NCBI GenBank assembly: GCA_964531735.1
Contig: CAZHGD010000005.1
Coordinates: 4,095 to 68,094 of the forward strand
Origin: an uncultured Fimbriimonadaceae bacterium
GTDB lineage: Bacteria; Armatimonadota; UBA10988
DNA length: 64,000 nucleotides
Direction of reading: 5' to 3'
The notes beneath the pieces were generated by a model. That model saw nothing but the letters and a program-made list of their open reading frames with translations, was not told where the DNA came from and did not search any database. Position 1 is the first letter of the stretch, and the number at the start of each line of letters is the position of its first letter. Made by a program: the position numbers and the translations under genes. This document shows, piece by piece, positions 1,769 to 64,000 of the stretch.

Positions 1769-1797
1769 TGACCGAACCGCCGGCCCGGCGGTATAGT
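1769..1797 (+). promoter_or_regulatory. sigma70-like promoter: TTGACC, 18-nt spacer, TATAGT
   Basis: An AT-rich hexamer pair in a 70% GC background, located in the 490-bp divergent intergenic region. It would drive the small ORF at 1821 and the gene at 2106. Confidence 0.3.
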
Positions 1798-1820
1798 TGG
1801 GGCCACACGGAACCGCGGAC

Positions 1821-2051
1821 ATGGCTCTCTTGCGCGCAATCTGGCAGGCGATCAGCAAAGCTCTGATGGCCTTTGGGCACTTCATGTCCTCGTACGTGGT
1901 CACCCCGGTGCTGTACTTCGTCGTGATGGCGCCGTTCGCGCCGTTCGCCCGTCGCGGCGACCCGCTGCGCGTGAGCGCGCAGGCCGGGCCGCAGTGGCAT
2001 CCCCGCGCGACCGCGACCGATGACCTGGAGAGCGCGGCGCGAATGCACTGA
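1821..2051 (+). CDS. small hypothetical membrane protein (76 aa, single predicted TM helix)
   Basis: ATG at 1821. [48 protein letters not shown] has protein-like composition. Third codon positions are strongly G/C-biased while the amino-acid composition is not Arg/Ala-rich. The putative promoter lies immediately upstream. Confidence 0.3.
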
Positions 2052-2105
2052 GCCGCGCGGCAGGAATCGTCCTGCGCACCGCCAAGCTCGTGGGCGGAGT
2101 CGCCC

Positions 2106-25566: not shown

Positions 25567-25599
25567 CAGTGGCGCCCAGTGCCGCGCGAAACGAGGTGC

Positions 25600-28539: not shown

Positions 28540-28820
28540 CACCGTCCTCCTCTGGGCTCACCGGACCGAGGTCCGGCCGATCGTCCCTGCGCTGCCACGG
28601 TTGTAACCCATCGGCGACCACGTTTCAACACAAATCGGAAGGGCGCCTCCCGACCGCGCCGGGTCCGGCAACGCCGTCGGCACCCGGCGCCCGGTGTCGG
28701 AGCGGCTGCCGGGGGCCTGGCCGACCCGCAGCGTGCCTGACCCGGACCAGACGATCGTGGCCGGAGCGCCGACGCCAAGACGTCAGTCGAGTACCATAGC
28801 CCAGACGTGAGCAAACTCCC

Positions 28821-29816: not shown

Positions 29817-30503
<687 letters not shown>

Positions 30504-46129: not shown

Positions 46130-46254
46130 CGGCACACCAACTTCCTCTCGACGAGACAGTCTACCACCGCGGCGAAACACGCTATAGTACGGGGCGGCAG
46201 TGGTCAGGGCTGACCGAGGGCCACAGCTCGGCAGCCGCGGCCCCGGAACCGCCA

Positions 46255-46351
46255 GCGCTGAGGAGGCCGTAGGCCGTCTCGAAGCGCGGCGATGGGGCGC
46301 AGCCCACCTGGCCGCGCTTCGAGACGGGGCCTGCCGGCCCCTCCTCAGCGC
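46255..46351 (+). promoter_or_regulatory. ~97-nt near-perfect palindrome. Outer arms are 12 bp (GCGCTGAGGAGG / CCTCCTCAGCGC), inner arms 17 bp (CCGTCTCGAAGCGCGGC / GCCGCGCTTCGAGACGG), and the central spacer is 20 nt.
   Basis: Read directly. It lies in the divergent esterase/GRE intergenic region, about 75 nt upstream of the GRE start codon and downstream of a TATAGT box at 46182. Confidence 0.4.
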
Positions 46352-46424
46352 CGGCGGTTCGGGTGGGACCGGCCTGGTTGCGGCTCCGATCTCGACCCGC
46401 CGCAGTGGTCCGCCGGAGAGTTGC

Positions 46425-48579: not shown

Positions 48580-50154
48580 ATGGCGCGATGGCTGGGTGTG
48601 TGTCTGCTGCTGCCGCTGGTGGCAATAGCGGCTGAGAGGACCGTGCGACCGGCGCTGACCGCCGACACCGCGCCGCAGTGGCGGTTCGTCAGCGGGCGCT
48701 GGCAACTGGCCGACGGCGTGCTGCGCCAGACGCAGCCCGACCGGCTCGGCGCCGCGGTGCTGGCCGGTCCGGCGTTCACCGACAGCGAGCTGTCGGTCGA
48801 GTTCCGGATCGCGGCCGAGGGCCAAGGCGTGCGCGCGGCGGCGGTGCTGTTCCGCGCCACCGGCACGCTGACCTACTACTGGCTGCACCTCGACTCGAAG
48901 CACAGCCAGGCGATCCTGGTGCGCCGCACGCCGCACAACCCGTGGATCGAGATCACGCGCCGCCGCGGCGTGGCCATCGCGTCGGAGCAGTGGCACCGCG
49001 TGCAGGTGGGCTGCGTGGGTGGTCACGTTACGGTGCGACTGGACGACCGCGAGATCCTGCAAGCCGACGACACCAACCTGCCGGCCGGCTACGTCGGCCT
49101 GGGCACCAGCCAGGGCCAAGTGGAGTTCCGCACGCTGGTGGTGAAAGGACAGACCGCCATGGACACACCGCTGCGCGACGAGCAGCCGCCGTTCCGCGTC
49201 ATCTCACTGGGTGCTGCGGCCGGGCCGTACCAGGCGTTTCCCGATGTCTGCCGCTGCGCCAACGGCGACCTGTTGGCCGTGTTCTACGCCGGCTATGGCC
49301 ATGTCTCGCTGCCGACGGCCGCGTGGCCGAAGGGCGGCCGCATCGGCATGGTGCGCTCCAGCGACGACGGCCGAACCTGGACCGAGACGGCGGTGTTGTT
49401 CGACAGCGACCTGGACGACCGCGATCCGCACATCGCGCAGATGAGTGACGGCAGCCTGGTGTGTACGTTCTTCCAGTACTGGCGCGACGGCAACCAGACG
49501 CGGTTCGTCACCTGCCTGACGCGGTCGCGCGATGGTGGCCGCACGTGGGACACCACCGCACAGCGGATCAGCCCCGAGGGCTGGGCGGTCTCGGCACCGG
49601 TGCGTGAGTTGCGCGATGGCACCTGGCTGCTCGGCGTCTACACCGAGTCGGGCGGCCACGCCTGGGGCGGTGTGCTGCGCTCCACCGACCGCGGCGCCAC
49701 CTGGAGCGCACCGATCCCCATCGGCCAGGAGGCCAACCTGCCGCTGGACGCCGAGACCGACGTGATCGAGTTGCGCGACGGCACCATCCTGGCGGCGCTG
49801 CGCAGCAGCAAGGTCAATCTGCACGTGGCCACCAGCGCCGATAAGGGCCTGACCTGGACGCCGGTCAAGGACGCCGGCTTCCCCGGCCATGCGCCGCACC
49901 TCTACCGTCTGAGCACGGGCGAGATCCTGATGACGCACCGGCTGCCGGCCACGGCGGCGCACCTCAGCCGCGACGACGGCCGCACCTGGCAAGGGCCGTA
50001 CCAGCTCGACAGCGTCGGCGGCGCCTATCCGTCTTCGGTAGAGCTGCGCGATGGGAGCGTGTTGGTCATCTACTACGAAGAGGGCGAAGGCAGCGCGATC
50101 CGGGCACTGCGGGTGCGGGTGACCGCCCAGGGCGTGGAAGTGGCGGGGCCGTAG
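48580..50154 (+). CDS. secreted DUF1080 (3-keto-glycoside hydrolase-like jelly roll) plus BNR/Asp-box sialidase-like (GH33-type) protein
   Basis: Signal peptide MARWLGVCLLLPLVAIAA. Five Asp-box repeats (SSDDGRTW, SRDGGRTW, STDRGATW, SADKGLTW, SRDDGRTW). 13 bp after the GRE stop codon, with AAAGGGG SD. Confidence 0.85.
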   Translation: MARWLGVCLLLPLVAIAAERTVRPALTADTAPQWRFVSGRWQLADGVLRQTQPDRLGAAVLAGPAFTDSELSVEFRIAAEGQGVRAAAVLFRATGTLTYYWLHLDSKHSQAILVRRTPHNPWIEITRRRGVAIASEQWHRVQVGCVGGHVTVRLDDREILQADDTNLPAGYVGLGTSQGQVEFRTLVVKGQTAMDTPLRDEQPPFRVISLGAAAGPYQAFPDVCRCANGDLLAVFYAGYGHVSLPTAAWPKGGRIGMVRSSDDGRTWTETAVLFDSDLDDRDPHIAQMSDGSLVCTFFQYWRDGNQTRFVTCLTRSRDGGRTWDTTAQRISPEGWAVSAPVRELRDGTWLLGVYTESGGHAWGGVLRSTDRGATWSAPIPIGQEANLPLDAETDVIELRDGTILAALRSSKVNLHVATSADKGLTWTPVKDAGFPGHAPHLYRLSTGEILMTHRLPATAAHLSRDDGRTWQGPYQLDSVGGAYPSSVELRDGSVLVIYYEEGEGSAIRALRVRVTAQGVEVAGP

Positions 50155-50328
50155 GCGTGAGGCGCCGCGGACTCTGTGGTGTCAAGGTCTGACGGATTGA
50201 GCTGATCGGTCGGATCTGTCGGGTCGGCCCGGTCCACGAGGCCGCCCGTGACCAGCGTTGTGTGCCGCCAGCTTGCCCCGCACGCCGGCATGTGCTACAC
50301 CTTCGGCGACGTCCACAGGAGCCTGCTC

Positions 50329-51576
50329 ATGCCGTGCGACTGCTCACCCGGTGACACCTCGCGACGCGAGTTCCTCCTCACCGCCGGCGCGCTGATGGCC
50401 ACGGCGGCGGGCGGCTTCGGGGCCGACCTCCCGGCGCGCGTCAAACAGGAGGGCCAGCGCACCTGGCTCGAGGGCAACGAGCCCTATCGGGTGCTGGAGC
50501 CGCTGTTCGAGGCCGTGCGCGTAGCGCTGGCCTACCGCGGCGAGCGCTACTCGCCAGCCTACGTGCAGGGCCTGTCGGGCGCGGCCTTCCGCATTGCCGG
50601 CATCTGCCCGTGCGCGCCGACGTGCAACAGCGCCATGGCGCCGGAGAAGCTGGCCGAGCTGCTCGGGTACGAGGTCAAGCTGATGATGCTCGACGAGCCG
50701 CAGCCGGGGCAGATCAAGGCGCTGGCCGACGCCATGCGCGCCAACCGCGGCGCCCTGCCGAGCGATGAGCAACTGGCCAAGCCCGAGTTGCGCGAACTGC
50801 GGCGGCGACTGCTGGCCATCCTCGCGGCCGTCAAGGACGAGGTCCGGGCCGGCCGGCCGGCGGTCGTCTGGAACGCCTTCACCAAGGCCGAGTTCGACGT
50901 GGTCACCGGCTTCGACGACGCCAAGGGCACCTTCGTCGGTCGCGGGTCGTACGCCGGGCTGGGCGGCGAGCCGGCCAGCGCGCCGCAGACGGCCACGCTG
51001 GGCGCGGTCTACATCGGCGGTCCGCCCGGGGCCATCCTGATCGGGGCCAAGGTGCGTGAACTGGAGGCGCGCACCGCCGAACTGGCTGCGCTCAAGGAAG
51101 CGGTGCGGCACGGCCGGTCGGACCTCAACCAGGACAGCCTCGGCACCAAGAAGTGGGCCATGCTGGAAGGACTGCGCTGCTACGACCGCTGGATCCAGGA
51201 CTTCCGCAGTCCGACCAAGAAGCGCGACCTGGGTGACTCCTACTGCTTCAGCATCTTGTGCAGCACGCGCGCGGCGGCGGCCGAGTTTGTACGCGGGATT
51301 GCGCCGCGCCACCCGGCCATGCAGACCGACCTGGCGGCCGCGGCCGAGCGGTTCGCCGCTGAAGCCGCGGCCCTCAAGCACGGCGCGCCGTTGCTGGGCT
51401 GGAAAGCGCCGGCCGGACCGGACGCCCGGCGCAATGAGCAGGTCGTCGACGTGCTGTTCGCCGCGCGCGAGCACTACGCGGGCGGCATTGTCTGCCTGGA
51501 GCGGGCGCTGGGCCTGCCAGCCCCGGTCGCCAACGGTCGGCGCCGCAGCTTTGGTCTGCGGACGCGCCGCCGGTAG
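50329..51576 (+). CDS. Tat-exported hypothetical protein, Cys-rich (CPCAPTC)
   Basis: SRREFLLTAGALMATAAG twin-arginine signal. AGGAG lies 7 nt upstream of ATG 50329. Function not recognised. Confidence 0.65.
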   Translation: MPCDCSPGDTSRREFLLTAGALMATAAGGFGADLPARVKQEGQRTWLEGNEPYRVLEPLFEAVRVALAYRGERYSPAYVQGLSGAAFRIAGICPCAPTCNSAMAPEKLAELLGYEVKLMMLDEPQPGQIKALADAMRANRGALPSDEQLAKPELRELRRRLLAILAAVKDEVRAGRPAVVWNAFTKAEFDVVTGFDDAKGTFVGRGSYAGLGGEPASAPQTATLGAVYIGGPPGAILIGAKVRELEARTAELAALKEAVRHGRSDLNQDSLGTKKWAMLEGLRCYDRWIQDFRSPTKKRDLGDSYCFSILCSTRAAAAEFVRGIAPRHPAMQTDLAAAAERFAAEAAALKHGAPLLGWKAPAGPDARRNEQVVDVLFAAREHYAGGIVCLERALGLPAPVANGRRRSFGLRTRRR

Positions 51577-51641: not shown

Positions 51642-54323
51642 ATGTTGGCCACCTATGCGCTTGCCCTGTTGCCGCTGCTGGCTGCCCTGCCCGACCCGCA
51701 GGCGGCCAGTGTGCTGGTTGAGGCCGAACGGTTCGACCAGCCCGGTGGCTGGCTCATCGACGCGCAGTTCCGGATGCAGATGGGCTCGACCTATCTGCTG
51801 GCCGCCGGCATCGGCACACCCGTGGCCGACGCCACCACCACCGTCAAGCTGCCGCGCGCGGGCACCTACCGCCTGTTCGTGCGCTGCAAGGACTGGGACC
51901 GGACCTCGCCCGGCGCGTTCCAGGTGCTGGTGGGCGGCCGGGCCAGCGAGGTGCGCTTCGGCACGCAGCGGCAGGGCTGGGCCTGGATTGCCGGCGGTGC
52001 GTTCGAGCTGCCGGCCGGCGCGGTGACCGTGGCGCTGCACGATCTGACGGGCTACTACGGCCGCTGCGACGCCGTGCTGCTGACCACCGACGCCAACTAC
52101 ACGCCGAGCAACGATGCCGCGGCGGTGGTGGCCTTGCGCCAGCAGTTGCTGCCGCCGCCGGCGCCGGTCACCTCGCAGTGGGACCTGGTCGTGGTCGGCG
52201 GCGGTTACGGCGGCGTCTGCACGGCGCTGCAAGCCGCGCGCCTGGGTCTGAAGACCGTCCTGGTGCAGAACCGGCCGGTGCTGGGCGGCAACGCCAGCGA
52301 CGAGATCCGCGTCGGCCCCGGCGGTGCGTCGCCGCACACGTCGCGGTTCCGCGAGACCGGCCTGTGCGAGGAGATTGCCGAGGGCCGCGTGCGGCCCAGC
52401 ATGAAGGGCTTCAGCGGTGCCATCGACCTGCTGGTGGCCGCCGAGAGCAACCTGACCGTGCTGCTCAACACCGAAGGGCAGCGCGCGGTGATGGACGGTC
52501 AGCGGCGCATCGCGGCCGTCGAGGCCGAGAATGTCATCGACGGCCGCCGCTACGTGCTCCGCGCGCCGCTGTTCGCCGACTGCACCGGCGACGGCCACCT
52601 CGCGTTCACCGCCGGCGCCGCGTTCCGCGTGGGCCAGGAGGCGCGGGCCGAGTATCACGAGAGCTACGCGCCCGAGCAGGCCAATCCGCACACCATGGGC
52701 ACGTCCATCCTGCACGGCTCCAAGCCGATGGACACCCCGCAGCGCTACGCGCCGCCGGCGTTTGCCGTGCGGTTCACCAAGGAGCACTTCCAGCACCGCA
52801 CCGAGACCATGCTGCACGGCAACTGGTGGGTCGAGTACGGCGGCCTGCGCGACACCATCGGTGACGCCGAGGAGATCCGCGACGAGCTGTTGCGAGTGGT
52901 CTTTGGCGCGTTCGACTACGCCAAGAACCACGACCGGGCCAACCGCGACCGCGCCGCCAACTACCGGCTGACGCACGTGCCCACCGTTGGCGGCAAGCGC
53001 GAGTCACGCCGGTTCATGGGCGACGTGGTGCTGACGCAGAACGACCTGGAGACGGCGCGGCTGTGGCCCGACCGCGTGGCCTGGGGCGGTTGGTCCATTG
53101 ACCTGCACCCCTCGCCGGGCATCTACGGCAAGGAGATTCCACCGTTCACGCCCTACGCGCTCAAGCAGCCGTACAGCATCCCGTACCGCATCCTCTTCCC
53201 CAAGGGCCTGGACAACCTGTTCATGGCGGGTCGCCACGTCAGTGTGACCCATGTGGCCCTGGGCTCGACGCGGCTGATGCAGACCATCGGCACCATGGGC
53301 CAGGCCTGCGGCGCGGCGGCCTTCCTGTGCCGGAAGTACGCCTGCGACCCGCGCGGTCTCTACCCCGAGCGCATCGGTGAGTTGCAGCAACTGCTGCTCA
53401 AGTGGGACGCCTACCTGCCGCAGGTGAGCAACGAGGATCCCGGCGACCTGTGCCGCGGCGCGAAGGCCACGGCGTCGAGCACCGCGCCGGTGTCGGTCTC
53501 GGTCTACGGCGCCGAGCCGCCGTGGACCAAGGACGCCCCCCTGACCATGGCGCGCGCCCAGACCATCGTGGCGGCCAAGGCTGGCGTCACCGCGGTGCAG
53601 GTGCTGCTGGCGAACCGCGGCGAGCAGGAGCAGACCGCGACGGTCCACCTGGAGCAGGGCCCGCTGGGCGCGGATGGCAACAAGCCGCTGTGGCAGGTCG
53701 AGGCCAAGGTCAAGCCGGGCGCGTTCCGCTGGATTGAGTTCAAGCTGCCGGAGGCGCTGCCGGTGATGAAGCCGTACCTGCTGTGGGTGGCGCCGAGCCC
53801 GGGCCTGGTGATGAAGATCGCCGAGGACGCCGACGGTGAACGCGCCTGGGGCAAGCCCGGCGCTTGGACTCATTCGCACGGGCTCTACGCCATCCGGCCG
53901 CTGAGCCGGTTCCAGGAGCTGGGCAACGTCGGTCCCAGCGCGGCAGTGGACGGGCTGAAGTGGCCGCTGGCCGGTGAAGGCCATCAGTGGCGCAGCGATG
54001 CCACGCAGGGGCTGCCGCAGTGGCTGGAGATCGACCTCGGCCGCCAGGTAGCGCTGAACACGGTCTACCTGACCTTCGACACCAACATCTACGGCCGCTT
54101 CGCGACGGCGCGGCCCGGTGCCGAGGTGACCGCGCAGGACTACCGCCTGCTCTACCGCGTCGGCAACGACTGGCGGCAGGCGTGCAGCGAACAGGGCAAC
54201 CGGCGCCGCTTCCGCCGGCACCGCTTCGCAACGGTGACCACCGACCGCCTACGGCTGGAGATCACCGCCGCGCGCAACGGCCAAGAGGCCCGCGTCTACG
54301 AGATCCGCGCCTACCACGAGTGA
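51642..54323 (+). CDS. secreted FAD-dependent oxidoreductase (FAD_oxidored/PF12831-like) with a C-terminal F5/8 type C (discoidin) carbohydrate-binding domain
   Basis: DLVVVGGGYGGVCTALQAARLGLKTVLVQNRPVLGGN (GxGxxG dinucleotide fold). A C-terminal beta-sandwich-like region. Signal peptide. Confidence 0.8.
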   Translation: MLATYALALLPLLAALPDPQAASVLVEAERFDQPGGWLIDAQFRMQMGSTYLLAAGIGTPVADATTTVKLPRAGTYRLFVRCKDWDRTSPGAFQVLVGGRASEVRFGTQRQGWAWIAGGAFELPAGAVTVALHDLTGYYGRCDAVLLTTDANYTPSNDAAAVVALRQQLLPPPAPVTSQWDLVVVGGGYGGVCTALQAARLGLKTVLVQNRPVLGGNASDEIRVGPGGASPHTSRFRETGLCEEIAEGRVRPSMKGFSGAIDLLVAAESNLTVLLNTEGQRAVMDGQRRIAAVEAENVIDGRRYVLRAPLFADCTGDGHLAFTAGAAFRVGQEARAEYHESYAPEQANPHTMGTSILHGSKPMDTPQRYAPPAFAVRFTKEHFQHRTETMLHGNWWVEYGGLRDTIGDAEEIRDELLRVVFGAFDYAKNHDRANRDRAANYRLTHVPTVGGKRESRRFMGDVVLTQNDLETARLWPDRVAWGGWSIDLHPSPGIYGKEIPPFTPYALKQPYSIPYRILFPKGLDNLFMAGRHVSVTHVALGSTRLMQTIGTMGQACGAAAFLCRKYACDPRGLYPERIGELQQLLLKWDAYLPQVSNEDPGDLCRGAKATASSTAPVSVSVYGAEPPWTKDAPLTMARAQTIVAAKAGVTAVQVLLANRGEQEQTATVHLEQGPLGADGNKPLWQVEAKVKPGAFRWIEFKLPEALPVMKPYLLWVAPSPGLVMKIAEDADGERAWGKPGAWTHSHGLYAIRPLSRFQELGNVGPSAAVDGLKWPLAGEGHQWRSDATQGLPQWLEIDLGRQVALNTVYLTFDTNIYGRFATARPGAEVTAQDYRLLYRVGNDWRQACSEQGNRRRFRRHRFATVTTDRLRLEITAARNGQEARVYEIRAYHE

Positions 54324-55228
54324 GGCGCTGCCTCGTGACGAGCGATGAACGCCGCGATGCTCGCGATGGCGTCGCGCGCCTCAGGCAGTAGCGGCTCGTG
54401 CGACTGGAAGACGTGGAACAGACCGTCGTACACCTCGAGCTGGACGTCGACGCCCTGCCCTTGCGCCTTGGCCGCCACGCGAACGCTGTCGTCGCGGATG
54501 ATCTCGTGCTCGCCCACCTGGATCAGCAGCGGCGGCAGACCGGCGTAGTCGCCGAACACCGGTGAGGCCAGCGGGTGGCGCCAGTCGTCCTCGGCCGCGT
54601 AGAGCCGCACGAAGTCGGGCAGGCAGCGCGGGTGCATGATCGGGTCGAGTTCGCCTGCGGTGCAGATCGAGTCGCCGCTGAGCGTCAGGTCGGTGAACGG
54701 CGAGAGGGCGATGCCACCGTCCGGCAGCGGCTGGTCGCGGTCGCGCAAGGCGAGCAGCGTGGCCAAGGTCAGCCCGCCGCCGGCCGAGTCGCCGGCGATG
54801 AACAGCGAGCGGGCTGGCTCAGCGCGGTGCGGCCCGTGCTCGCGCAGCCAGGCCGCGGCGCGCAGACAGTCCTCCAGCCCGGCGGGGAAGCGGTGCTCCG
54901 GCGCCAGCCGGTAGTCGGGCAGCAGCACCGCGCACTGGGCCGCCGCCGAGAGGTGGGCGGCCAACGCCAGGTAGAACGCGCCCGCTCCGGAGACGTAGCC
55001 GCCACCGTGCAGGTAGAGCAGGCGCCGATCCGGGTCGGCGCCCTCGGCGAGCACCCACTCAGCCGGCAGGTCGCCCAGGTCGACGGTCGCGCCGGTGACG
55101 CCGGCGATGGTCGGTGGCCGGCGCGTGGCCATGCAGGCGCGCAGCTCGGCGAGGTCGAACCCGTTGGCGCCGAAGGCCGGCGTCTCGTGCAGCATCCGGA
55201 AGTAGGCCTGGCTGGCGGGCGAGGTCAT
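54311..55228 (-). CDS. alpha/beta-hydrolase fold-3 esterase/lipase (HGGG family)
   Basis: LHGGGYVSG oxyanion motif and GDSAGG nucleophile elbow. The start was refined to MTSPASQ. The 3' end overlaps the FAD oxidoreductase gene by 13 nt (convergent). Confidence 0.8.
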   Translation of the reverse strand: MTSPASQAYFRMLHETPAFGANGFDLAELRACMATRRPPTIAGVTGATVDLGDLPAEWVLAEGADPDRRLLYLHGGGYVSGAGAFYLALAAHLSAAAQCAVLLPDYRLAPEHRFPAGLEDCLRAAAWLREHGPHRAEPARSLFIAGDSAGGGLTLATLLALRDRDQPLPDGGIALSPFTDLTLSGDSICTAGELDPIMHPRCLPDFVRLYAAEDDWRHPLASPVFGDYAGLPPLLIQVGEHEIIRDDSVRVAAKAQGQGVDVQLEVYDGLFHVFQSHEPLLPEARDAIASIAAFIARHEAAPHSW

Positions 55229-55301: not shown

Positions 55302-56675
55302 TCAAGCCGTGGCCGGCACAGCCGTCGGCGGATACTGCCGGTAGACCTTCGCCATGGTCCAGACCGCCAGCAGCAGGCCCAGAGCGTCGGCCACGGGTTG
55401 GCTGGCATAGGCGCCCAGCACGCCCCAGTAGGCCGACATGACGTAGACCAGCGGCAGCACCAGCACGGCGCCGCGCGAGACGGTCAGCCACATGGCCGCC
55501 GCGCCCTTGCCCATGCCCTGGAGCGTGAAGACCGCCATCATCTGCGGCTCGACCAGGAAGAAGGTGCTGATCTGTAGGCGCAACGCCAGCACACCCAGCC
55601 GCTGCAACTCCGCGTCGTGGGCAAACGGCTTGATGATCCACGGCGCGAAGAGGATCACCAGCACGCCGAGGATGAACCCGCCCGTGCCGGTCCAGACTGC
55701 GGCGAAGCGGTAGGCGTACCACATGCGGCGGTAGTCGCGGGCGCCGAACGCGTAGCCGACGATGGGCGTCAGCGCCTGGTTCACGCTGCCGCCGAGGCAG
55801 GCGATGATCAGGAACATGACCCGGTTGCCCAGGCCGACCCCGGCAATGGCGGCGGCGCCGAAGCCGCCCAGCACATGGTTGATCAGCGAGGCGACAATGC
55901 CGCGCAGCACCATGGTCGCCGCTGCCGGCGCGCCGACTTCGAGGATGTCCCACATCACCTGCGGCCGCAGCCGCAGGTGGTGCCAGCGCAAGTGGTAGCC
56001 GCTGCGCGGCCCGCACATGTAGCGCGCGGCGACGTAGGCGGAGACGAGCTGCCCGCAGATGGTGGCGATGGCGGCGCCCTGCATCTCCAGACGCGGGCAG
56101 CCGTACCAACCGTAGATGAGGAACGGGTCGAGCACGGCGGTGACCAAGGTGCCGCTGAGCGTAATGACCATCGGCGTCCAGGTGTTGCCCGCGCCGCGGA
56201 ACAGGCCACCCAGCGCGCCGCCGCTCATAGCGAAGGGGAAGCCGAGTGAGACGGTCTGCAGGAAGACCACCGACGGTCCGATCACCTCCGGCGTGGCGCC
56301 GAGCGCGCGGACCAAGGGGTGGGCCGCGACCAGCCCGACGACCATGAACACGAGGCCCATGCCGACCGATAGGAGGACGCCTTGCCCGGCAGCCTGGTTG
56401 GCCTCGTCGACGCGCGTGGCGCCGAACCGCCGCGACACCAGCGACATGACCCCGGCACTGACGCCCATGCCCACCGCGCCGGCGATCATCATGAACGGCA
56501 TCAGCACCGTCAACGCCGCAATCGCTTGCGTGCCCGTGGGCAGACCAGCCACCCAGTAGGCGTCGACGATGTTGTAGAGCGCCATGCTGACCATGCCGAC
56601 CATGCCGGGAATGCTCAGCTTGACCATCAGCGGACCGAGTGCGGCCGAGCCCAGGTCGGTCGTTCGTTGGTCCAT
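55302..56675 (-). CDS. MATE-family efflux transporter
   Basis: 12-TM pattern with a typical MATE N-terminus (KLSIPGMVGMVSMALYNIVDAYWVAGL). Start at the first ATG (MDQRTTD). The TTG at 56723 is an alternative. Confidence 0.85.
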   Translation of the reverse strand: MDQRTTDLGSAALGPLMVKLSIPGMVGMVSMALYNIVDAYWVAGLPTGTQAIAALTVLMPFMMIAGAVGMGVSAGVMSLVSRRFGATRVDEANQAAGQGVLLSVGMGLVFMVVGLVAAHPLVRALGATPEVIGPSVVFLQTVSLGFPFAMSGGALGGLFRGAGNTWTPMVITLSGTLVTAVLDPFLIYGWYGCPRLEMQGAAIATICGQLVSAYVAARYMCGPRSGYHLRWHHLRLRPQVMWDILEVGAPAAATMVLRGIVASLINHVLGGFGAAAIAGVGLGNRVMFLIIACLGGSVNQALTPIVGYAFGARDYRRMWYAYRFAAVWTGTGGFILGVLVILFAPWIIKPFAHDAELQRLGVLALRLQISTFFLVEPQMMAVFTLQGMGKGAAAMWLTVSRGAVLVLPLVYVMSAYWGVLGAYASQPVADALGLLLAVWTMAKVYRQYPPTAVPATA

Positions 56676-56832
56676 GGTGCCCGATTCGGGCGGCGCCAGG
56701 GCAGTGTCGTCGGCCACGTGCAACTCCAGTCCGCCGGTCGTGTGATGGTTACAACGCGCAGCAGTTGCAACAGGTTACCACTGGTGCGCGCGCCAGGGGA
56801 CCTTTGGGCAGACGTTGAGCGCGCGGCAACGT

Positions 56833-57912
56833 TCAGCGCCAGGCGCGGCGACCTTCGTCGAGGACCAGCAGGTACTGCGACACGGGCATGTAGTCGGTCA
56901 GCGAGTTGCCGGTGCCCAGCGCCCAGTAGCCGCCGGCGGTGCAGCGGGCGATCTTCTCGCGCGCATAGGCTCGCAGGTGCGGCTCGTCCAGCCGGCAGAT
57001 GGCGTCCACGTCCAGCCCGCCGAGCGGCGTCACGCGCCGGCCGTACTGCGCCTGGAAGTCCTCGACGGGCAGGATGCTGTCCTCGAACGAATGCTTGGCG
57101 TCGATGCGGCAGGTGTCGATCAGGTCGTCGTAGATGGCGCCCAGGTTGCCGCACGAGTGCAGGATGAACGGCTTGCCGGCCGCGTGGGCCGCCGCGGCCT
57201 GCGCGGTGTAGATGGGCAAGACCAGGCGGCGCAAGGCGTCGGGTGGCAGAAAGGTGGCGGTGCGGAAGCCCAGGTCGTCGCCCTGGCGCAGCGCGCCCAC
57301 CGCGTCCATGGTGGCCAGTTGCCGGCAGGCGCTGACGTGCAGCCGGCCGAGCTGGGCGAACACGCGCTCGAGCAGCTCCGGGTTGTCGTGGAGCAGCAGC
57401 GACAGGCCCATCACACCGAGCAGATAGGTGGCCCACTCGAACGGCCCGGCGCAGACGCCGCCGACGATCTTGGCGCCGTCGGGCAGCAGCGCGGCGACGG
57501 TCTCGAAGTGGCGGAACTCGATCGGGTCGGCTTCGTCGGGCCAGGGATAGGCCGCGAAGTCGGCCAGGGAGCGAATGCACACGGTGGCCTCGCTCTGGTG
57601 CGAGACCGCGCCGGCCACGTGGTGGGCCGTCGGCAGCGTCAGCCGCGGCGGAATCTCCATCGGCACACAGTCGAAGCCCAGGCCGAGCCAGAAGTCGACG
57701 TAGATGCGCCAGTACTCGGTGTCCTGCGGCGACATCCGGTCGAACGCCGTGCCGGTGCGCCGCGCGATGAAGCCCGGGCTGGCCAGGTGCTCATAGCACG
57801 GCAGATGCGTCGGCGTGCCCTCGCGGCGCAGCACCTTGAGGAACTGGTCGAAGTCTGGTTGGTGAGCGGTCACACGCGTCTCCCGTCGATCAGGGCAGTT
57901 CCAGCAGACCAC
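56833..57912 (-). CDS. uroporphyrinogen-decarboxylase (URO-D)-fold protein of the MtaA/CmuA methyltransferase-like family
   Basis: QFLKVLRREGTPTHLPCYEHL matches the family N-terminus (…EGKPVDRVPV…). TIM-barrel length about 360 aa. The GTG start overlaps the upstream beta-helix gene by 23 nt. Confidence 0.7.
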   Translation of the reverse strand: MVCWNCPDRRETRVTAHQPDFDQFLKVLRREGTPTHLPCYEHLASPGFIARRTGTAFDRMSPQDTEYWRIYVDFWLGLGFDCVPMEIPPRLTLPTAHHVAGAVSHQSEATVCIRSLADFAAYPWPDEADPIEFRHFETVAALLPDGAKIVGGVCAGPFEWATYLLGVMGLSLLLHDNPELLERVFAQLGRLHVSACRQLATMDAVGALRQGDDLGFRTATFLPPDALRRLVLPIYTAQAAAAHAAGKPFILHSCGNLGAIYDDLIDTCRIDAKHSFEDSILPVEDFQAQYGRRVTPLGGLDVDAICRLDEPHLRAYAREKIARCTAGGYWALGTGNSLTDYMPVSQYLLVLDEGRRAWR

Positions 57913-60562
57913 CGCCGTCGAGGTTGGTCGTGGGTCCCAGCGCGCCGGCCCAGACCAGCCACTCGCCGGTCTCGGTGCGCAGCGCGCCTAGGTTGAAGCC
58001 CAGCTTCAGGCCCGGCCGCGGCACGATCCTGGCGGCCGCGAGTGGAATCGCCCACTCGGCGCTCCACTGCCCGCGTTCGACGCGCGCGGCGTAGTGCGTC
58101 TGCCGCGCCAGGTCGGCCAGCAGGTCGGCGGGCGCGCCGGTCTCCGGGTTGGCTTCGTGGCGGCCGTTCGGATAGGCGCGGAAGCCGAAGGTCGGCCCGG
58201 GCCGGCTACCGGAGGCCTCGCGGAAGCACACTTCGGCGCCGTCCACGCCGCCCCAGGCGCCGCCGACCTTGAGCTTGTCGGCATCCGACAGCGGCACGGT
58301 CACCCGCACGTGGAGCCGGGCGCCGTCGAAGGCCACCTGCGCGGCGGCCGGTCGGCTGGCGATGGGCTGTCGTCCCGGGTCCTCGGCCAAGGCCAACGGC
58401 GTGCCGGACCAACCGGCGGCCACCGGCGCGGTAACGCGCACGGCCTTGACCCGCGCCTTCGGGTGCAAGGCCAACGGCGGCGGTGGTGGCGGCGCGGGCG
58501 GCGCGGGCCGCACCGTGTGCTGCACCGGCCAAGTGGCCCGCGTGTCGCTGGCGTAGAGGCCGATCCGCTCCACCGGGATCCGCTTGAAGCCCAGCTTCCA
58601 GACCGGCGAATCGGGCCCCAGACGGTAGTCGTCGCGGGCCGCATCCACGAAGCGCGGATCGCCGTCGCTGAAGTTGTCCTTGACCACGGCCGTCTGGGCG
58701 GCGCGGCCCTCCAGCTTCAGCCACTGGCCACCGGCGCGCACGTTGCGCGTGACCTGGTTGTACTTGGCGAGGCCCGGCTCGTCGTCGAGGATGTCGGCCA
58801 GGTGCGGGTACCGCCCACGCCAAAGGTCGCTCTGGTAGGGCACCGCGGCCAGGCCCTGCAACAACTGGCCCTTCTCGGCGGGCCAGAACCCGGTGGTGGT
58901 CACGTTCACGGCCGGCGTGCAGTCGACAAACACGTTGTTGTCAATCACGTTGTCGCGGCCACCATGCACGAACACCGCGCCGGCGCCGCCGCGGACCCGC
59001 GCGAGGACATTGCCGTAGACGGTGGTGCCGCTGATGAAGTTGTCCAGGTAGATGCCGTTGCAGCCCTGGCCGAGGTGGCCGTAGATGTCATGGAGGTAGT
59101 TGTGCCGGAACACCTGGCCGCGCCGGGTCCAGTCGTGGTAGGCGTAGATGACGCCCGCGTCGTTCGAGTGGTAGACCACGCTGTGGAACTCGCAGAACTC
59201 GATCACATGGTCGTTGCCCGAGAACAGCACGGCGGCGTGGGGTCCGTCGTGGATCAGGCAGTGGCGCAGGAGGTTGCCGACGCCTTCGAGCGCCACGGCC
59301 GGCTTGTACATCGGGTCCCACCGGCCATAGCGGTGGATGTGGCAGTTGTCCGCCACGTGCCGCGCCGGGGTCAGCGTGCGGCGGTCGCCGCCGTCGAGCA
59401 GAACACCGCCGTCGCCGGTGTCGACCACATCGCAACCGAGCAGCAGATGGCGTTCGCCACCGGCCACGCGCACGCCCCAGCCGCCGACGTTGCGGATCGT
59501 GCAGCCGACCAACTGGCACCGCGCGCCACCGCTCACCTGCACGCCGGTATCCTGCGCGCATTCGAGCGTCAGGCCGCGCAGCGTGACGTAGGAGACGTCC
59601 TTGGTGGTGACCAGGTTGGGCAGGACCGAGACCTGCACCGAGGTGTCGTCGAGCGCCGCGGGCGGCAGGAAGTAGAGCAGCCCCCGAGCGCGGTCGAGGT
59701 ACCATTCGCCCGGCTCATCCAGCTCGCAGAGCAGGTTGTAGGCATAGTACCACTGGCCTTTGCGCCAGCCGAACTCGTGCGCGCGGCCGTCGAGCGTCAA
59801 CTCGTGAGTGGCCGGGTCGATGGCCTTGACGCGGTAACGCTGGTCGGCCCAGTCCCAGAACCAGTAGCCATGAACCATGGCGTCCGGCTCGCCGGCCCAG
59901 CGCGCGGGGCGGTCGCCGTCGTAATGGAATCGCGGCACCTTGCTGCCCTTGATGCCGAAGATGTTCCAGCCGTCGGCGACGCTGATGTCGGCGATGTGAG
60001 TGAAGCCCTGGTTCGGCCAGCGCGCCAACGTCATCGGCCGACGATCGCAGAACAGCTCCAGGCCGGCGTCGGAGTTGGCCCAGGTGTCGGCCGACTTCAT
60101 GGCGCCGAACTGGCGGAGGCCCAACGCCGTCAGGTCCGCCTGGCGCACCCGCTGGCGCACCGCCGGGTCGAGGCGGGCCAGTACCGCCGGAGCCTTGACC
60201 GGCTGCCAGCCGGTGACCACCTTGCCGCCGATGACGCGCACGGTGGCGCCGGGCGCCGCGCGGTAGCAGATCGGCGCGTCGGCGGTGCCCGAGTCCTGAA
60301 CCTCCAGTGCCAGGGGCGCGGACAGCTCGTAACGGCCCGCCGCCAGTTGGATGGTGACGCCGCCGCGTGGCAACGGCCCGGCCGCCTTCAGCTTGCGGAC
60401 GGCGTTGCGAGCGCCGAGCGGCGTGGCCAGCGGGCCGTCGGTGCGGGCCGCGTTCGGCGTGTCGGCGCGACCCGACCAGGCGTCGTTGCCCGTCGGCGAC
60501 ACATAGAGCCGCTGCGGCGCCGGCGCCAGCCAGCACAACGCAGCCAGGAGAGCCGTGGTCAT
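57890..60562 (-). CDS. secreted right-handed parallel beta-helix protein (pectate-lyase-fold polysaccharide lyase/hydrolase-like)
   Basis: MTTALLAALCWLAPAPQRLYVSPTGNDAWSGR is the characteristic N-terminus of the family. Repetitive GxxxG/N beta-helix coils. GAGGA SD. Confidence 0.8.
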   Translation of the reverse strand: MTTALLAALCWLAPAPQRLYVSPTGNDAWSGRADTPNAARTDGPLATPLGARNAVRKLKAAGPLPRGGVTIQLAAGRYELSAPLALEVQDSGTADAPICYRAAPGATVRVIGGKVVTGWQPVKAPAVLARLDPAVRQRVRQADLTALGLRQFGAMKSADTWANSDAGLELFCDRRPMTLARWPNQGFTHIADISVADGWNIFGIKGSKVPRFHYDGDRPARWAGEPDAMVHGYWFWDWADQRYRVKAIDPATHELTLDGRAHEFGWRKGQWYYAYNLLCELDEPGEWYLDRARGLLYFLPPAALDDTSVQVSVLPNLVTTKDVSYVTLRGLTLECAQDTGVQVSGGARCQLVGCTIRNVGGWGVRVAGGERHLLLGCDVVDTGDGGVLLDGGDRRTLTPARHVADNCHIHRYGRWDPMYKPAVALEGVGNLLRHCLIHDGPHAAVLFSGNDHVIEFCEFHSVVYHSNDAGVIYAYHDWTRRGQVFRHNYLHDIYGHLGQGCNGIYLDNFISGTTVYGNVLARVRGGAGAVFVHGGRDNVIDNNVFVDCTPAVNVTTTGFWPAEKGQLLQGLAAVPYQSDLWRGRYPHLADILDDEPGLAKYNQVTRNVRAGGQWLKLEGRAAQTAVVKDNFSDGDPRFVDAARDDYRLGPDSPVWKLGFKRIPVERIGLYASDTRATWPVQHTVRPAPPAPPPPPPLALHPKARVKAVRVTAPVAAGWSGTPLALAEDPGRQPIASRPAAAQVAFDGARLHVRVTVPLSDADKLKVGGAWGGVDGAEVCFREASGSRPGPTFGFRAYPNGRHEANPETGAPADLLADLARQTHYAARVERGQWSAEWAIPLAAARIVPRPGLKLGFNLGALRTETGEWLVWAGALGPTTNLDGGGLLELP

Positions 60563-60577
60563 AGCGTCCTCACCAGG

Positions 60578-62974
60578 TCAGTCGGCCGCCTGGTACAGGG
60601 CCAGGTCGTCCACGTACACCTTCTCGCCGGGCTTGAACCCGTTGATGATAGCCACCAGCAGCGCGCGGGTCACCTTCACCTGGTTGACCTTCTCGGGCAC
60701 GGTCAGCGGGCAGGCGATGGTGACCCAGGTGCCGGGTGTCGGCGTCACCTCGGTCAGCGGGCTGGGCAGGTTCTTGTCGTCGTCGCCACGCATGGTGGCG
60801 GCCACCGCGACCGTGCCGGTGCTCTGCTGCCCCTCGGGGATCAGGAAACTCGCCACCGACACATACCGGCCCGGCCGGATCGGCACCGTCTGGTGCGGCC
60901 CGCCGCGGGCCAGGCCGTCGCAGAGCACCGCCGACTTGCCCGTGTGGGCCGCTGCGGTGGTCAGCTTGACCGCGCCGGTGGACGCGACCCACAGGCCCCA
61001 GGGCGCCACCCCGTCCTCGAACGAAGGGTTCGGGTTGAGCCGCTTGGCCCGGCCGTCCACCACCTGCAGCACGGTACGGGCCTGCTCGGCCAGTGACCCT
61101 TCGCGCCGGGCGGCCAGGGCCTCGACGCGCGCGCGCACGGTGGCGCTGCGCGCGATCCAGTCGTAGACCTGCCAGATGGAGCCGGTGCCCCAGTTGGTGC
61201 CGCTGACGCCGCCGTACTGGCTAGCCGACAGCGGATGCGCCAGGACCGGATGGTCGCGCCACTGCTCCAGGAGCTGCAAGCGGCGCTGGCCCATGGCGGT
61301 CCGTTCCTCGGCCCGCTCCAGCAGCGCCGCGGCATCGGTCTCGGTGCGGATGGTCCGGCCGCGCGCCGCGGCGTCGGCCTGGTAGGCAATAGCCGAGGCC
61401 TCGTAGTAGGCGAAGGCGTCGCGCAAGAGCGCCGCGCGGGCCTTCTGCGGCGGCGTCTGAGCCTTGGCCAGGCACTGGTCCAAGAGCTCGCGGCTGCGGC
61501 GAACGTCGCTCTCCTTGGCGTCGGCCAGATAGCCTGGCGCGGCGAAGTTGAGGTACTGGCCCGACACCGTGAACCACTTCGACCGCAACACGTCGACGGT
61601 CCAGAAGCGCTCCCAGATGGCGTAGTACTCAGCCAGCAGCGGCGCGGCCTCCGGCCCCACGCAGCGCCGGTACCAATCGTCGAGCAGCGCGTCGACGTCG
61701 GCGTCCGGGTTCCACTGCAACTTCAGGAAGACGTACGGCTTCGGGCCTTCGCCCCAGTTCGGGTAGATCTCCGCATAGTGCGCGCGCACGCCGTGATCGC
61801 GGCCGAACTTCAGGTAGCGGGCCATCTGGTGCGGGTAGACGCGGGGCAACAGGTAAGGTGAGCCGTAGGTGTAGTCATACCAGCCGAGCGTCGGCGACAT
61901 GGCCTGCCAGCGCCGCGTCAGCTCCTCGCCGTGCGCGCGCACCTCGTCGTGGATCCACTTGTGGCGGTCGTAGGTCATGTAGGGAATCAGCCGCGGGTGC
62001 AGCTTGACGCGCGTCGGCGGCTCGACCACGTTGTTGTAGGCGAGCAGGCCGAACCACTTGTCCGGGTACTCCTTGAGCACCTCCGTGACCACCTCGTTGC
62101 ACCACGAGTAGTAGCTGTCGGACACGTCACGCTGGCCGAGGAAGTTCTTGCGGCCGGTCTCGCGCGCCAGCGATTCGGGCGACTCGTCGAACCGGTGCGT
62201 GTCGTTGATGCCCAGCGAGTAGCTGGTGACGTCGGGGTGCGTGCGGAAGAACTCCTTGATGTTGCGCGCCCCTTCGGCCGCGATGCCCGGCGCCGCGAAG
62301 TTGGGCTGCCAGGTGTGGTCGTCGTCCTTGGTGGGCAGGTAGCGCTGGCCGCCGTAGACCGGGAAGAACTCCGGATGGGTCTTGGTGTACCGGCTGGCCG
62401 GGAACAGGTTGAGCAGGTTGTGGTGGAACGAAACGCGCCCGTGCATGCGGTTGCGCCGCGCCCACTCGCCTTGCGCCGGACCACGCAGGCCCGACAGCAG
62501 GCGCGAGAAGAACACCGGCTGCTGGCGTACTTCGTCGGGCGGCACCTCGAGGCGCTCGCGCTGGGGCACATCGCAGCCGTCGGCGCCGGGCAGCAGCCAG
62601 CGCACGCCGACGTACCGCTCCAGGAATTCGCAGACGCCGAACTCGGTGCCCCATTCGGTCGGCCCGGCAACCACGTAGGTCCGCGCGTCGAGCCCCCGCA
62701 GCACGAAGCCGTCCTCATCGAGCCCGGCCAGCGACACGCTCGGCGTCGGACCCAGGCGAATCGCGGTCCGGCCGGCCGGATCGTCGGCGACTGGCAGTTC
62801 CTGGCCGGTGCTCTGCTTGACCAGACCCTGGAGGAGCTTGGCGGTCGCCAGCCGCGCCGGGTTGCGGTCGCCCGGCACAATGACGGCCGGTGGCTGTCCC
62901 GGCGCGACGATGACCAGCGCCTCCGCGCGGGGCAGCACGGCCAGTAGCAGGACCAACCAGGTCAACGGGCGCAT
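60578..62974 (-). CDS. secreted DUF4838-like putative glycoside hydrolase with a C-terminal carbohydrate-binding (CBM4/9-like) module
   Basis: Signal peptide MRPLTWLVLLLAVLPRAEA. The C-terminal NPNPSFEDGVAPWGLW...KVYVDDLALYQ segment is CBM-like. 15 bp upstream of the beta-helix gene on the same strand. Confidence 0.6.
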   Translation of the reverse strand: MRPLTWLVLLLAVLPRAEALVIVAPGQPPAVIVPGDRNPARLATAKLLQGLVKQSTGQELPVADDPAGRTAIRLGPTPSVSLAGLDEDGFVLRGLDARTYVVAGPTEWGTEFGVCEFLERYVGVRWLLPGADGCDVPQRERLEVPPDEVRQQPVFFSRLLSGLRGPAQGEWARRNRMHGRVSFHHNLLNLFPASRYTKTHPEFFPVYGGQRYLPTKDDDHTWQPNFAAPGIAAEGARNIKEFFRTHPDVTSYSLGINDTHRFDESPESLARETGRKNFLGQRDVSDSYYSWCNEVVTEVLKEYPDKWFGLLAYNNVVEPPTRVKLHPRLIPYMTYDRHKWIHDEVRAHGEELTRRWQAMSPTLGWYDYTYGSPYLLPRVYPHQMARYLKFGRDHGVRAHYAEIYPNWGEGPKPYVFLKLQWNPDADVDALLDDWYRRCVGPEAAPLLAEYYAIWERFWTVDVLRSKWFTVSGQYLNFAAPGYLADAKESDVRRSRELLDQCLAKAQTPPQKARAALLRDAFAYYEASAIAYQADAAARGRTIRTETDAAALLERAEERTAMGQRRLQLLEQWRDHPVLAHPLSASQYGGVSGTNWGTGSIWQVYDWIARSATVRARVEALAARREGSLAEQARTVLQVVDGRAKRLNPNPSFEDGVAPWGLWVASTGAVKLTTAAAHTGKSAVLCDGLARGGPHQTVPIRPGRYVSVASFLIPEGQQSTGTVAVAATMRGDDDKNLPSPLTEVTPTPGTWVTIACPLTVPEKVNQVKVTRALLVAIINGFKPGEKVYVDDLALYQAAD

Positions 62975-63049
62975 CGCTCTCTCCGGGTCACGGCGCCGAA
63001 CGACGGTGGCGGGCGTGCACTTCGAGCGACAGCGCCAGGGACCTTCCGC

Positions 63050-63712
63050 CTATCGGTCGGCGGTCCACCGCAGGCCGCGGGCCAGCACCTCGCGGAACTG
63101 CGGGTGGTCGAAAGCGCCGGCGCCGTGACCGGACTGCCAGCAAAACACACGGGCGGCCCGGAACTGCCGCGTCCAGGCCAGCGTCGGCACGCTCCGCGGA
63201 TGGTCGGTGGTCAGCAGCACGTGGTTGCCCGCGGCGGCGTCGACGCCGGGCATCAGGTAGGTCTCGTCGACCATGGTCCAGGGCGCCAGGCCGCGCGTGA
63301 TCGGGTGGTCAAGATCGACCGGCGTGAGGGTCACGGTCTGGTCGAAGTCCCACTCCACAACGCGCTGCTCGGCGCCCACCAGCTCGGACCAGAACGGCCA
63401 GTCGGGAAAGGCCACCAGCGAGTGGTGCAGCAGCACGATGCCCTGCGACGTCTCGCCCAGCGACGACAGCGCGCCGATGAGCTGGGCCTCGTACCAGGGC
63501 CGCGCGGCCTCCAGCGGCTCGCTATACATGTGGTAGAAGCAGACCGCGTCGTACTCGCCGCGGCGTCCGCCGACGTCGGTGACCCAGTCCTCCATGTGCA
63601 TGACTTCGGGACATACGCCGTCTAGGCCGCGGAGCATCGCGTGGAACGGTCGCACGTCGAACGGGTGGTGTCCGGTCACCACGGCCACCTGCAACGGGCG
63701 TGTCTCGGGCAT
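63050..63712 (-). CDS. ThuA-family protein (trehalose-utilisation ThuA-like class-I glutamine-amidotransferase fold)
   Basis: MPETRPLQVAVVTGHHPFD...VLLHHS is typical ThuA. It is usually partnered with a Gfo/Idh/MocA (ThuB-like) dehydrogenase. Confidence 0.8.
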   Translation of the reverse strand: MPETRPLQVAVVTGHHPFDVRPFHAMLRGLDGVCPEVMHMEDWVTDVGGRRGEYDAVCFYHMYSEPLEAARPWYEAQLIGALSSLGETSQGIVLLHHSLVAFPDWPFWSELVGAEQRVVEWDFDQTVTLTPVDLDHPITRGLAPWTMVDETYLMPGVDAAAGNHVLLTTDHPRSVPTLAWTRQFRAARVFCWQSGHGAGAFDHPQFREVLARGLRWTADR

Positions 63713-63732: not shown

Positions 63733-64000
63733 TCAGCGGTCCCAGAGCAGTTTGGTCTGCACGCTGTCGGCGCCGGCGAGGCCCGACTCCAGCCGCGCCG
63801 ACCAGGCGGCCGGGTCCAGCGCCGGCAGCAATTCCTCGAACGCGCCGCTGATGGTCTCGGCCGTCTCATCGTGCCAGATCATGCGCTGCTGGGCCGTGGC
63901 GAACGGGTAGGTGCCGCCCTGCGTGATGCGCTCGAAGGCCGGCGGATGGTGAATGAAGATCAGGTAGGGCGTGTCGCTGTAGATGGCCATGCTGGCCGGG
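63733..64000 (-). CDS. hypothetical protein, probably partial. Its N-terminus may lie beyond the window end.
   Basis: An open frame to the window edge with protein-like composition (…YLIFIHHPPAFERITQGGTYPFATAQQRMIWHDE…). The Met at 63990 has no SD. Confidence 0.35.
   Translation of the reverse strand, partial: PASMAIYSDTPYLIFIHHPPAFERITQGGTYPFATAQQRMIWHDETAETISGAFEELLPALDPAAWSARLESGLAGADSVQTKLLWDR

Follow-up and report, generated by a model that had tools for sequence, protein, structure and literature searches.

In a 64-kb stretch of DNA from an uncultured Fimbriimonadaceae bacterium (contig CAZHGD010000005.1; the whole stretch is called the window here), a gene on the minus strand (56833–57873) encodes a cytoplasmic protein of 346 amino acids (aa) that belongs to the uroporphyrinogen decarboxylase (URO-D) superfamily and stands directly behind genes for a ThuA-like protein and two putatively secreted proteins with DUF4838 and beta-helix domains. 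Judged by its motifs, this URO-D-like protein carries a zinc motif and falls on the side of the methyltransferases and MetE within the superfamily; it is neither the haem-synthesis decarboxylase nor an orthologue of any characterised enzyme, and the family that it represents is distinct, uncharacterised and strongly constrained. The reading that we favour, tentatively and with somewhat less than even probability, is that the enzyme transfers a methyl or alkyl group with the help of zinc, its substrate being a small molecule derived from carbohydrate. A narrower proposal, that the family consists of sugar or oligosaccharide O-demethylating methyltransferases of an undescribed, O2-independent corrinoid pathway, is doubtful.

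A URO-D-fold protein with a conserved zinc-type motif

Superfamily membership follows from a Pfam URO-D (PF01208) score of 48.8 bits against a gathering threshold of 23.9, the match covering profile positions 99–324 only and thus omitting the N-terminal substrate-binding region. The best NCBIfam models were of the MtaA type, namely PRK06252 (27.6 bits, cut-off 244) and MtaA_Meth (18.8 bits, cut-off 400), with scores that stay below the thresholds of the MtaA/MtbA family models, and no HemE model appeared in the NCBIfam scan at E ≤ 0.01. A regular-expression search of the 346-aa protein found neither PxWxMRQAGR nor the second URO-D signature, the PROSITE patterns of HemE. The missing HemE model match and the missing signature motifs together rule out HemE identity.

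A single-sequence search of the PDB with the protein gave no match, and a search with the family profile gave one marginal match, to MtaA (E 0.11), which served for motif alignment. The AlphaFold2 model, built from 24 homologues (predicted local distance difference test score 89.8, predicted template-modelling score 0.90), has the (beta/alpha)8 fold of URO-D. Foldseek places the structures of HemE and MtaA equally close to this model, at template-modelling (TM) scores of 0.70–0.76 and 13–18% identity, followed by those of MetE at a TM score of about 0.55. The protein and MtaA, an MT2 enzyme (PDB 4AY7/4AY8; NCBIfam NF040654, PRK06252), share the URO-D TIM-barrel fold (TM score 0.71), and the L-H-x-C-G-N motif is matched residue for residue. 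They differ in that identity is only 15–16%, that the hosts of the URO-D-like family have no methanogenic context and that the invariant N-terminal motifs of the family (LPxYEH, YVDFW..GYD and PWP) have no counterpart in the MtaA alignment.

Specifically, the family profile places PFILHSCGN on VLHICGN of MtaA, the zinc-ligand motif of MT2 enzymes, so that the His-x-Cys...Cys zinc motif of MtaA-type enzymes is present at the sequence level. His239, Cys241, Glu264 and Cys311 are invariant in 24 orthologues, and among 105 diverse relatives H239 and G242 are kept in 100%, C241 in 97%, E264 in 80% (mostly Gln otherwise) and C311 in 75%; RQGDDLG is a further motif of the protein. On the alignment, His239-x-Cys241, Glu264 and Cys311 would form a zinc site of the kind by which MtaA- and MetE-type alkyl transferases activate their substrates. 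The initial annotation, which had described an MtaA/CmuA-like protein of the URO-D fold and had proposed a check of zinc-ligand conservation, is borne out as to the fold, the non-HemE identity and the His-x-Cys motif, aligned with that of MtaA and kept in 97–100% of the 105 relatives. The protein is not a bona fide MtaA, for which 27.6 bits against 244 falls far short.

That the protein is a divergent HemE after all, or a cofactor-free decarboxylase of a new type with a sugar acid as substrate, strikes us as very improbable. The Pfam family, which is that of the founding HemE proteins (PDB 1URO, 4EXQ), the position of HemE structures at the top of the Foldseek matches and the uronate- or sugar-acid-type neighbours in some loci (UxaE-like, MR_MLE, 2-Hacid_dh) speak for such an activity. 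Set against them are the missing HemE model and signatures, a Pfam match without the N-terminal substrate-binding region and the His-x-Cys zinc motif, which marks the methyltransferase and MetE branches and not HemE; HemE lacks this His/Cys motif. Moreover, no haem-pathway genes were seen near the URO-D-like gene in any locus, and for the 'new decarboxylation' once suggested for the window's protein there is no direct evidence.

A large family with relatives in sugar-catabolic operons

At E ≤ 1e-5 the URO-D-like protein finds more than 4,389 clusters of 90% identity. Orthologues of 56–72% identity, spread over six phyla, come from metagenome-assembled genomes (MAGs) labelled Armatimonadota or Armatimonadia, Planctomycetota (Phycisphaerales and Sedimentisphaerales), Verrucomicrobiota, Kiritimatiellia, Lentisphaerales and Hydrogenedentes, with one further MAG from Nitrospirales, and at 50% clustering this tier has one full-length representative (P0121). 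The next tier, about 40% identical, includes proteins of Firmicutes, Spirochaetia and Chloroflexota. Databases name the family only as 'uroporphyrinogen decarboxylase (family/-like) protein', and a literature search found no paper that treats it.

The link to sugars is clearest among more distant relatives. Within two genes of relatives of 36–44% identity, sampled in 25 loci, were found PfkB (4), ABC permeases (4), SBP_bac_1 (3), MFS (3) and Lyx_isomer-like cupins (3), as well as alpha-amylase (2), mannose-6-phosphate-isomerase-like proteins (2) and RACo (2). In a chloroflexotal locus (L025), a relative of 38% identity follows a glycoside hydrolase (GH) of family GH127 and an FAD oxidoreductase. 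Gly_radical/PFL-like proteins also occur near relatives in this range of identity.

One locus (L111, 1–10503) combines these elements on a single strand: ABC permeases, GH13 and a hypothetical protein come first, followed by the URO-D-like relative and an MtaC-like corrinoid protein that matches PDB 1y80 at E 3e-60, and then by RACo and a second methyltransferase, which is MtaA-like and matches PDB 4ay7 at E 1e-17. The relative encoded there, at 36% identity, keeps every motif of the family, including KPFILHSCGNL, DAKHSFED and GDDLGYKT. A second locus (L114, 1–10630) has the same gene order, also co-directional, with a Met_synt_B12-like protein in the place of the corrinoid protein; the conserved hypothetical protein of the two loci (381 and 390 aa) had no Pfam or PDB match. 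L111, the only locus in which a corrinoid protein was found next to a relative of the URO-D-like protein, is, as read from its predicted products, a complete corrinoid methyl-transfer system linked with glycoside-hydrolase and sugar-transporter genes, and such a coupling of a glycoside hydrolase to corrinoid methyl transfer appears to be undescribed. A further point in favour of a corrinoid link is that in one orthologue locus (L031) RACo is encoded 3.6 kb from the orthologue, beside another paralogue.

The closest bacterial parallels are OdmB, VdmB and the Mlp proteins, members of the URO-D superfamily whose partners are a corrinoid protein and an activase of the RACo/Ram type (PMC10418091). 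L111 and L114 resemble their gene clusters in carrying two URO-D-type genes and RACo and, in L111, the corrinoid protein. By contrast, those clusters are self-contained, and the orthologues of the window's protein are orphans with neither corrinoid protein nor activase, a distinction that we draw from descriptions of the clusters. The known substrates, those of OdmB and VdmB, are aryl methyl ethers, and the orthologues are found mainly in glycan degraders of the PVC (Planctomycetes–Verrucomicrobia–Chlamydiae) superphylum, Armatimonadota and Hydrogenedentes.

These relatives also bear on the possibility that the protein is a corrinoid-independent zinc thiol alkyltransferase, similar to MetE or to epoxyalkane:coenzyme M transferase, whose zinc site would activate a thiol for alkylation, be it homocysteine, another thiol of low molecular weight or a thio-sugar. 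MetE (PDB 1T7L, 3L7R), a two-barrel protein of about 750 aa, belongs to the same clan and ranks behind HemE and MtaA in fold similarity, and the H-x-C, Glu (+23), Cys (+70) pattern resembles the MetE ligand pattern; orthologue loci without a corrinoid protein nearby and frequent housekeeping-like contexts would also suit such an enzyme. Nevertheless, we regard it as improbable, because the TM score to MetE is only about 0.55, no Pfam Meth_synt or Meth_synt_2 match was found and the nearest sequence-level model is MtaA-like. In addition, RACo and an MtaA-like protein accompany the relatives in L111 and L114, joined in L111 by a corrinoid protein, and genes of methionine or sulfur metabolism do not recur among the neighbours.

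If the family does consist of sugar demethylases, the methyl ether would be activated by zinc and its methyl group handed on to a corrinoid. L111- and L114-type loci would then show the full system, orthologues of the window type would use partners encoded elsewhere, and many anaerobic or facultative glycan degraders would have the pathway (the PVC superphylum, Armatimonadota, Hydrogenedentes and some Chloroflexota and Firmicutes). Because relatives of 36–44% identity lie in sugar operons and a corrinoid protein accompanies one of them in L111, the methylated-sugar idea is plausible at the family level; for the window's own gene it is unproven, and no direct evidence points to 6-O-methyl-galactose or 4-O-methyl-glucuronate, the substrates named in the initial annotation.

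Orthologue neighbourhoods and the proposed function

The genomic surroundings of the orthologues were surveyed in 88 non-redundant loci (825 kb in all), of which 52 span 6 kb or more. In an all-against-all BLAST of open reading frames (ORFs) for conserved operon partners, the majority of the recurring 'clusters' proved to be ORFs antisense to the URO-D gene. When the window's DUF4838, ThuA and beta-helix proteins were compared by BLAST with all ORFs of all retrieved loci, the first two had no homologue and the third had one in a single locus (L043), where the orthologue is 72% identical and the beta-helix homologue (28% identity over about 490 aa) lies two genes downstream. With 87 of the 88 loci devoid of any window neighbour, the specific operon does not survive as a shared unit: the position of the URO-D-like gene behind these glycanases is lineage-specific, and there is no conserved operon.

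Several lineages have arrangements of their own. In Verrucomicrobiota/Kiritimatiellia (L018, L020, L021), a different beta-helix family stands upstream and an FGGY kinase downstream on the same strand, and in Phycisphaerales (L022, L023) an SSF symporter is a same-strand neighbour. Other orthologues adjoin a UxaE-like protein (L012) or GFO_IDH_MocA (L003), and in L040 a sugar ABC transporter follows a tandem paralogue of the orthologue. Together with the beta-helix genes of the window and L043, these sugar-related neighbours speak for a carbohydrate link of the orthologues. Hydrogenedentes (L017, L026, L037) have a conserved string of SDR, a 297-aa hypothetical protein, the URO-D-like protein, 2-Hacid_dh, LarA_N, TPR and PFK; the 2-hydroxyacid dehydrogenase there is PdxB-like with DUF3410, and the string hints at sugar-acid or phosphosugar chemistry in that lineage. 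A general enrichment of beta-helix proteins, promising in the first 30 or so loci, was abandoned, as no BLAST homologue was found in 55 metagenome orthologue loci.

The sole recurrent neighbour found was another member of the superfamily. A 'type B' URO-D paralogue without HxCG adjoins the orthologue, or a relative of 38% identity, in at least five unrelated loci (L034, 7877–9004; L029, 7770–8894; L007, 11218–12300; L025, 7540–8706; L050, 3–686), and these paralogues are 27–36% identical to one another across lineages. In one further locus (L035, 9001–10380), the orthologue is called as a 459-aa protein (P0016) that matches the N-terminus of an SDR protein over its first 110 or so residues and is URO-D-like in the rest. 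It could be a real fusion, but was set aside as Rosetta-stone evidence since so short an SDR part may be the remnant of a disrupted gene.

Under the reading that we favour, the URO-D-like enzyme would act in the cytoplasm, where zinc would help it to transfer a methyl (or alkyl) group of a small carbohydrate-derived molecule taken up by the cell. The most plausible reaction would take the methyl group off a methylated sugar and pass it to a corrinoid or other acceptor, which would be encoded elsewhere in the genome.

Several observations count against this reading. No corrinoid-binding protein was found in the 64-kb window, as the initial annotation had remarked, nor in the 88 orthologue loci, when six-frame ORFs were searched for the DxHxxG...SxL...GG motif and by phmmer with the corrinoid protein of L111 and the Pfam tables were inspected; neither the window nor any of these loci has a corrinoid protein and partner alongside in the manner of MtaA. 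The carbohydrate and corrinoid links first proposed have support at the level of the family (the 36–44% relatives, L111 and L114), and the corrinoid link finds none in the neighbourhoods of the orthologues apart from the RACo gene of L031. In the 55 metagenome orthologue loci, 83 immediate neighbours match 89 Pfam families, among which URO-D (6 neighbours) is the only one seen more than twice, and the enrichment of carbohydrate genes near the orthologues and relatives is an estimate from manual inspection with no formal background. Housekeeping neighbours are common (HisG, SRP54, DAHP synthase, QRPTase, SerS and RpsB/Tsf), next to other unrelated ones (Mfd, ECF sigma factors and fatty-acid synthesis genes), and contexts this varied fit a stand-alone core function as well as a glycan-linked one. 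The initial description of a gene embedded among glycanases is right as to adjacency, which is nonetheless unremarkable: in a window so rich in carbohydrate-active enzymes (CAZymes), such adjacency is expected by chance and says little, because any gene of the window is likely to adjoin a glycanase. Zinc binding, methyl transfer and substrate are each predicted from sequence. Lastly, alkyl methyl ethers are chemically harder to cleave than the aryl ones handled by known O-demethylases of the URO-D type.

Much of this would be explained if the gene were a coincidental neighbour, its product having a stand-alone core or housekeeping role and the short spacer reflecting compact packing, which we consider a serious though somewhat unlikely alternative. 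Identities of 56–72% across phyla combined with non-conserved surroundings are typical of core enzymes, and the housekeeping genes near other orthologues, the near-complete absence of the window's neighbours from their loci and the CAZyme density of the whole window all fit. Conversely, a 16-nucleotide (nt) spacer with a Shine-Dalgarno motif straight after the beta-helix stop codon suggests co-transcription, L043 retains a homologous beta-helix gene within two genes, and the Verrucomicrobiota/Kiritimatiellia loci place the orthologue between another beta-helix family and an FGGY kinase. Furthermore, the relatives of 36–44% identity are clearly inside sugar-catabolic operons. Overall, the arrangement in the window is real, lineage-specific and in part expected by chance, and the links of the protein family to sugar catabolism and corrinoid methyl transfer are circumstantial.

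The gene string and its junctions

The URO-D-like gene belongs to a co-directional run on the minus strand that occupies 54.3–64.0 kb of the window; the genes of the run have a GC content at third codon positions (GC3) of 0.91–0.94, a pattern expected of real genes, in a window of 70% GC. At its upstream end lies the 3′ part of a gene (63733–64000, minus strand, GC3 0.93) that matched no Pfam family. As the initial annotation had it, this ORF is truly partial, because its frame stays open up to the window edge. It is followed on the same strand by genes for a ThuA-like protein of 220 aa (63050–63712; Pfam ThuA, 82.1 bits), which has a class-I glutamine-amidotransferase-like fold and an N-terminus without a hydrophobic segment; a putatively secreted DUF4838 protein of 798 aa (60578–62974; Pfam DUF4838, 146 bits); a putatively secreted right-handed beta-helix protein of 890 aa (57890–60562; Pfam Beta_helix, 56 bits); and the URO-D-like protein. 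Pfam thus upholds the four domain assignments made initially, at the same minus-strand coordinates. The run does not end at 56833, as had been supposed, since a MATE-family efflux transporter (55302–56717, minus strand; Pfam MatE, 165 bits; TIGR00797, 182 bits, over its cut-off) follows after a gap of 115 nt, and an Abhydrolase_3 esterase of the hormone-sensitive-lipase type (54311–55228, minus strand; Pfam, 194 bits) after a further 73 nt. The esterase gene is the last of the run and converges with that of an FAD oxidoreductase at 51642–54323; the gene models of the transporter and the esterase are those of locus L001.

The gaps between the upstream ORF, ThuA, DUF4838, beta-helix and URO-D-like genes are 20, 75, 15 and 16 nt. 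From ThuA to the URO-D-like gene, every start codon has a purine-rich, Shine-Dalgarno-like run upstream (GAAGGAG before the ThuA ATG), and no terminator-like hairpin was found between the genes, the sole one detected lying within ThuA. One strand, short gaps, ribosome-binding sites and the lack of an internal terminator are what is expected of an operon, and these four genes are probably a co-transcribed catabolic unit, as far as sequence features can tell.

The junction between the beta-helix and URO-D-like genes had been described as an overlap of 23 nt, which proves to be an artefact of ORF calling that arises only if the longest ORF, starting at GTG 57912, is taken. The true junction is a 16-nt spacer (57874–57889, minus strand, read directly as TCGACGGGAGACGCGT) containing the Shine-Dalgarno-like GGGAG, because the identical database protein (P0001) is modelled with 346 aa, homologues begin within a few residues of Val14 and GTG 57873, the conserved start, has GGGAG 6 nt upstream.

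Exported neighbours in a glycan-rich window

The two proteins encoded directly upstream had been described as polysaccharide-active proteins with signal peptides. Their DUF4838 and Beta_helix domains are confirmed, and their export is suggested by hydrophobic N-termini that were judged by eye. The DUF4838 match spans profile positions 4–324 of 325 (PF16126), so that the protein has the domain found in GH163 and GH185. DUF4838 is the GH20-related catalytic domain of these two families, in which BT1035 (GH163) is an endo-beta-N-acetylglucosaminidase and Sp_0475 (GH185) a 6-sulfo-GlcNAcase (PMC10570127). The carbohydrate-binding module (CBM) that had been assigned to the protein along with DUF4838 is less secure, its CBM_4_9 match being sub-threshold (21.6 bits against a cut-off of 25.9) and the C-terminal region matching PDB 2zey weakly too.

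In the PDB, the beta-helix protein matches 9rx2 (E 4e-22), a recent, unpublished-looking entry titled 'parallel beta-helix repeat protein', and BT_1002 (5mqp; E 5e-7), the founder of GH141, in the N-terminal 100 or so aa only. It is possibly related to GH141, a family with alpha-L-fucosidase, xylanase and endo-fucanase activities (PMC5593877, PMC12786026) whose enzymes have two catalytic Asp residues (PMC5593877). Both assignments are ordinary for genomes of this kind and do not identify the glycan.

The nearest relatives of the window's genome are Armatimonadia, and the genome has many glycan-degrading genes. Nearly the whole 64-kb window is glycan-related, with a GH129-like protein carrying CBM9, an AXE-like esterase, GH32, a GH39-like protein, a 1,225-aa GH42-like protein, a LamG-type protein of 1,365 aa, MR_MLE, and SDR and epimerase genes. 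A glycyl-radical enzyme is encoded at 46200–48566 on the plus strand (PFL-like, 288 bits; Gly_radical, 57 bits), amid a CAZyme-rich region. Parts typical of 3-keto (oxidative) routes of glycoside cleavage are scattered through the window, namely BNR fused to 3keto-disac_hyd (DUF1080; 48580–50154), the FAD oxidoreductase already mentioned (51642–54323; 893 aa, with Golvesin_C and F5/8-C domains), a GFO_IDH_MocA protein with a twin-arginine translocation signal (1–991), AP_endonuc_2 (25579–26367) and ThuA (63050–63712). Three DUF1559 (SBP_bac_10) proteins (27829–28542, 29817–30503 and 1049–2224, minus strand) have type-IV-pilin-like N-terminal methylation motifs, and two of them have almost identical N-termini. 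Three large ORFs with coding-type GC3 lie between glycoside-hydrolase genes (19502–21541, 12528–15674 and 50248–51576, plus strand) and encode 679, 1,048 and 442 aa, for which no Pfam match was found.

Implications for sugar demethylation and haem annotation

Methyl ethers on sugars block normal catabolism; examples of such sugars are 6-O-methyl-galactose in porphyran, 4-O-methyl-glucuronate in xylan, 2-O-methyl sugars in rhamnogalacturonan-II and methylated bacterial glucans. Our literature search for sugar demethylases found only an O2-dependent cytochrome P450 route, in which P450 enzymes of marine bacteria demethylate 6-O-methyl-D-galactose by oxidation (PMC6292453). This route is closed to anaerobes. 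If the methylated-sugar reading is true, the P450 and the URO-D-like enzymes would serve the same purpose, the removal of a methyl ether that blocks catabolism, with unrelated folds and chemistries, since the route proposed here would be a methyl transfer. The window showed no P450. The predicted glycyl-radical enzyme of the window shows that the organism can live anaerobically, which fits the O2-sensitive chemistry of Co(I).

The function of the URO-D-like protein is unproven, and what can be said of it comes from comparison of sequences and predicted structures. Its family is experimentally tractable and moderately interesting. Because it is large and conserved, carries a zinc motif on a methyltransferase fold and occurs in sugar-uptake operons with at least one corrinoid-protein neighbour, it offers a concrete candidate for an anaerobic route of sugar demethylation, which is so far missing. 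Should a core role unrelated to glycans turn out to be true instead, the family would still be one of the larger branches of the URO-D superfamily to which no function is assigned. Its routine mis-annotation as 'uroporphyrinogen decarboxylase' can falsely complete haem pathways in metagenome-based reconstructions.

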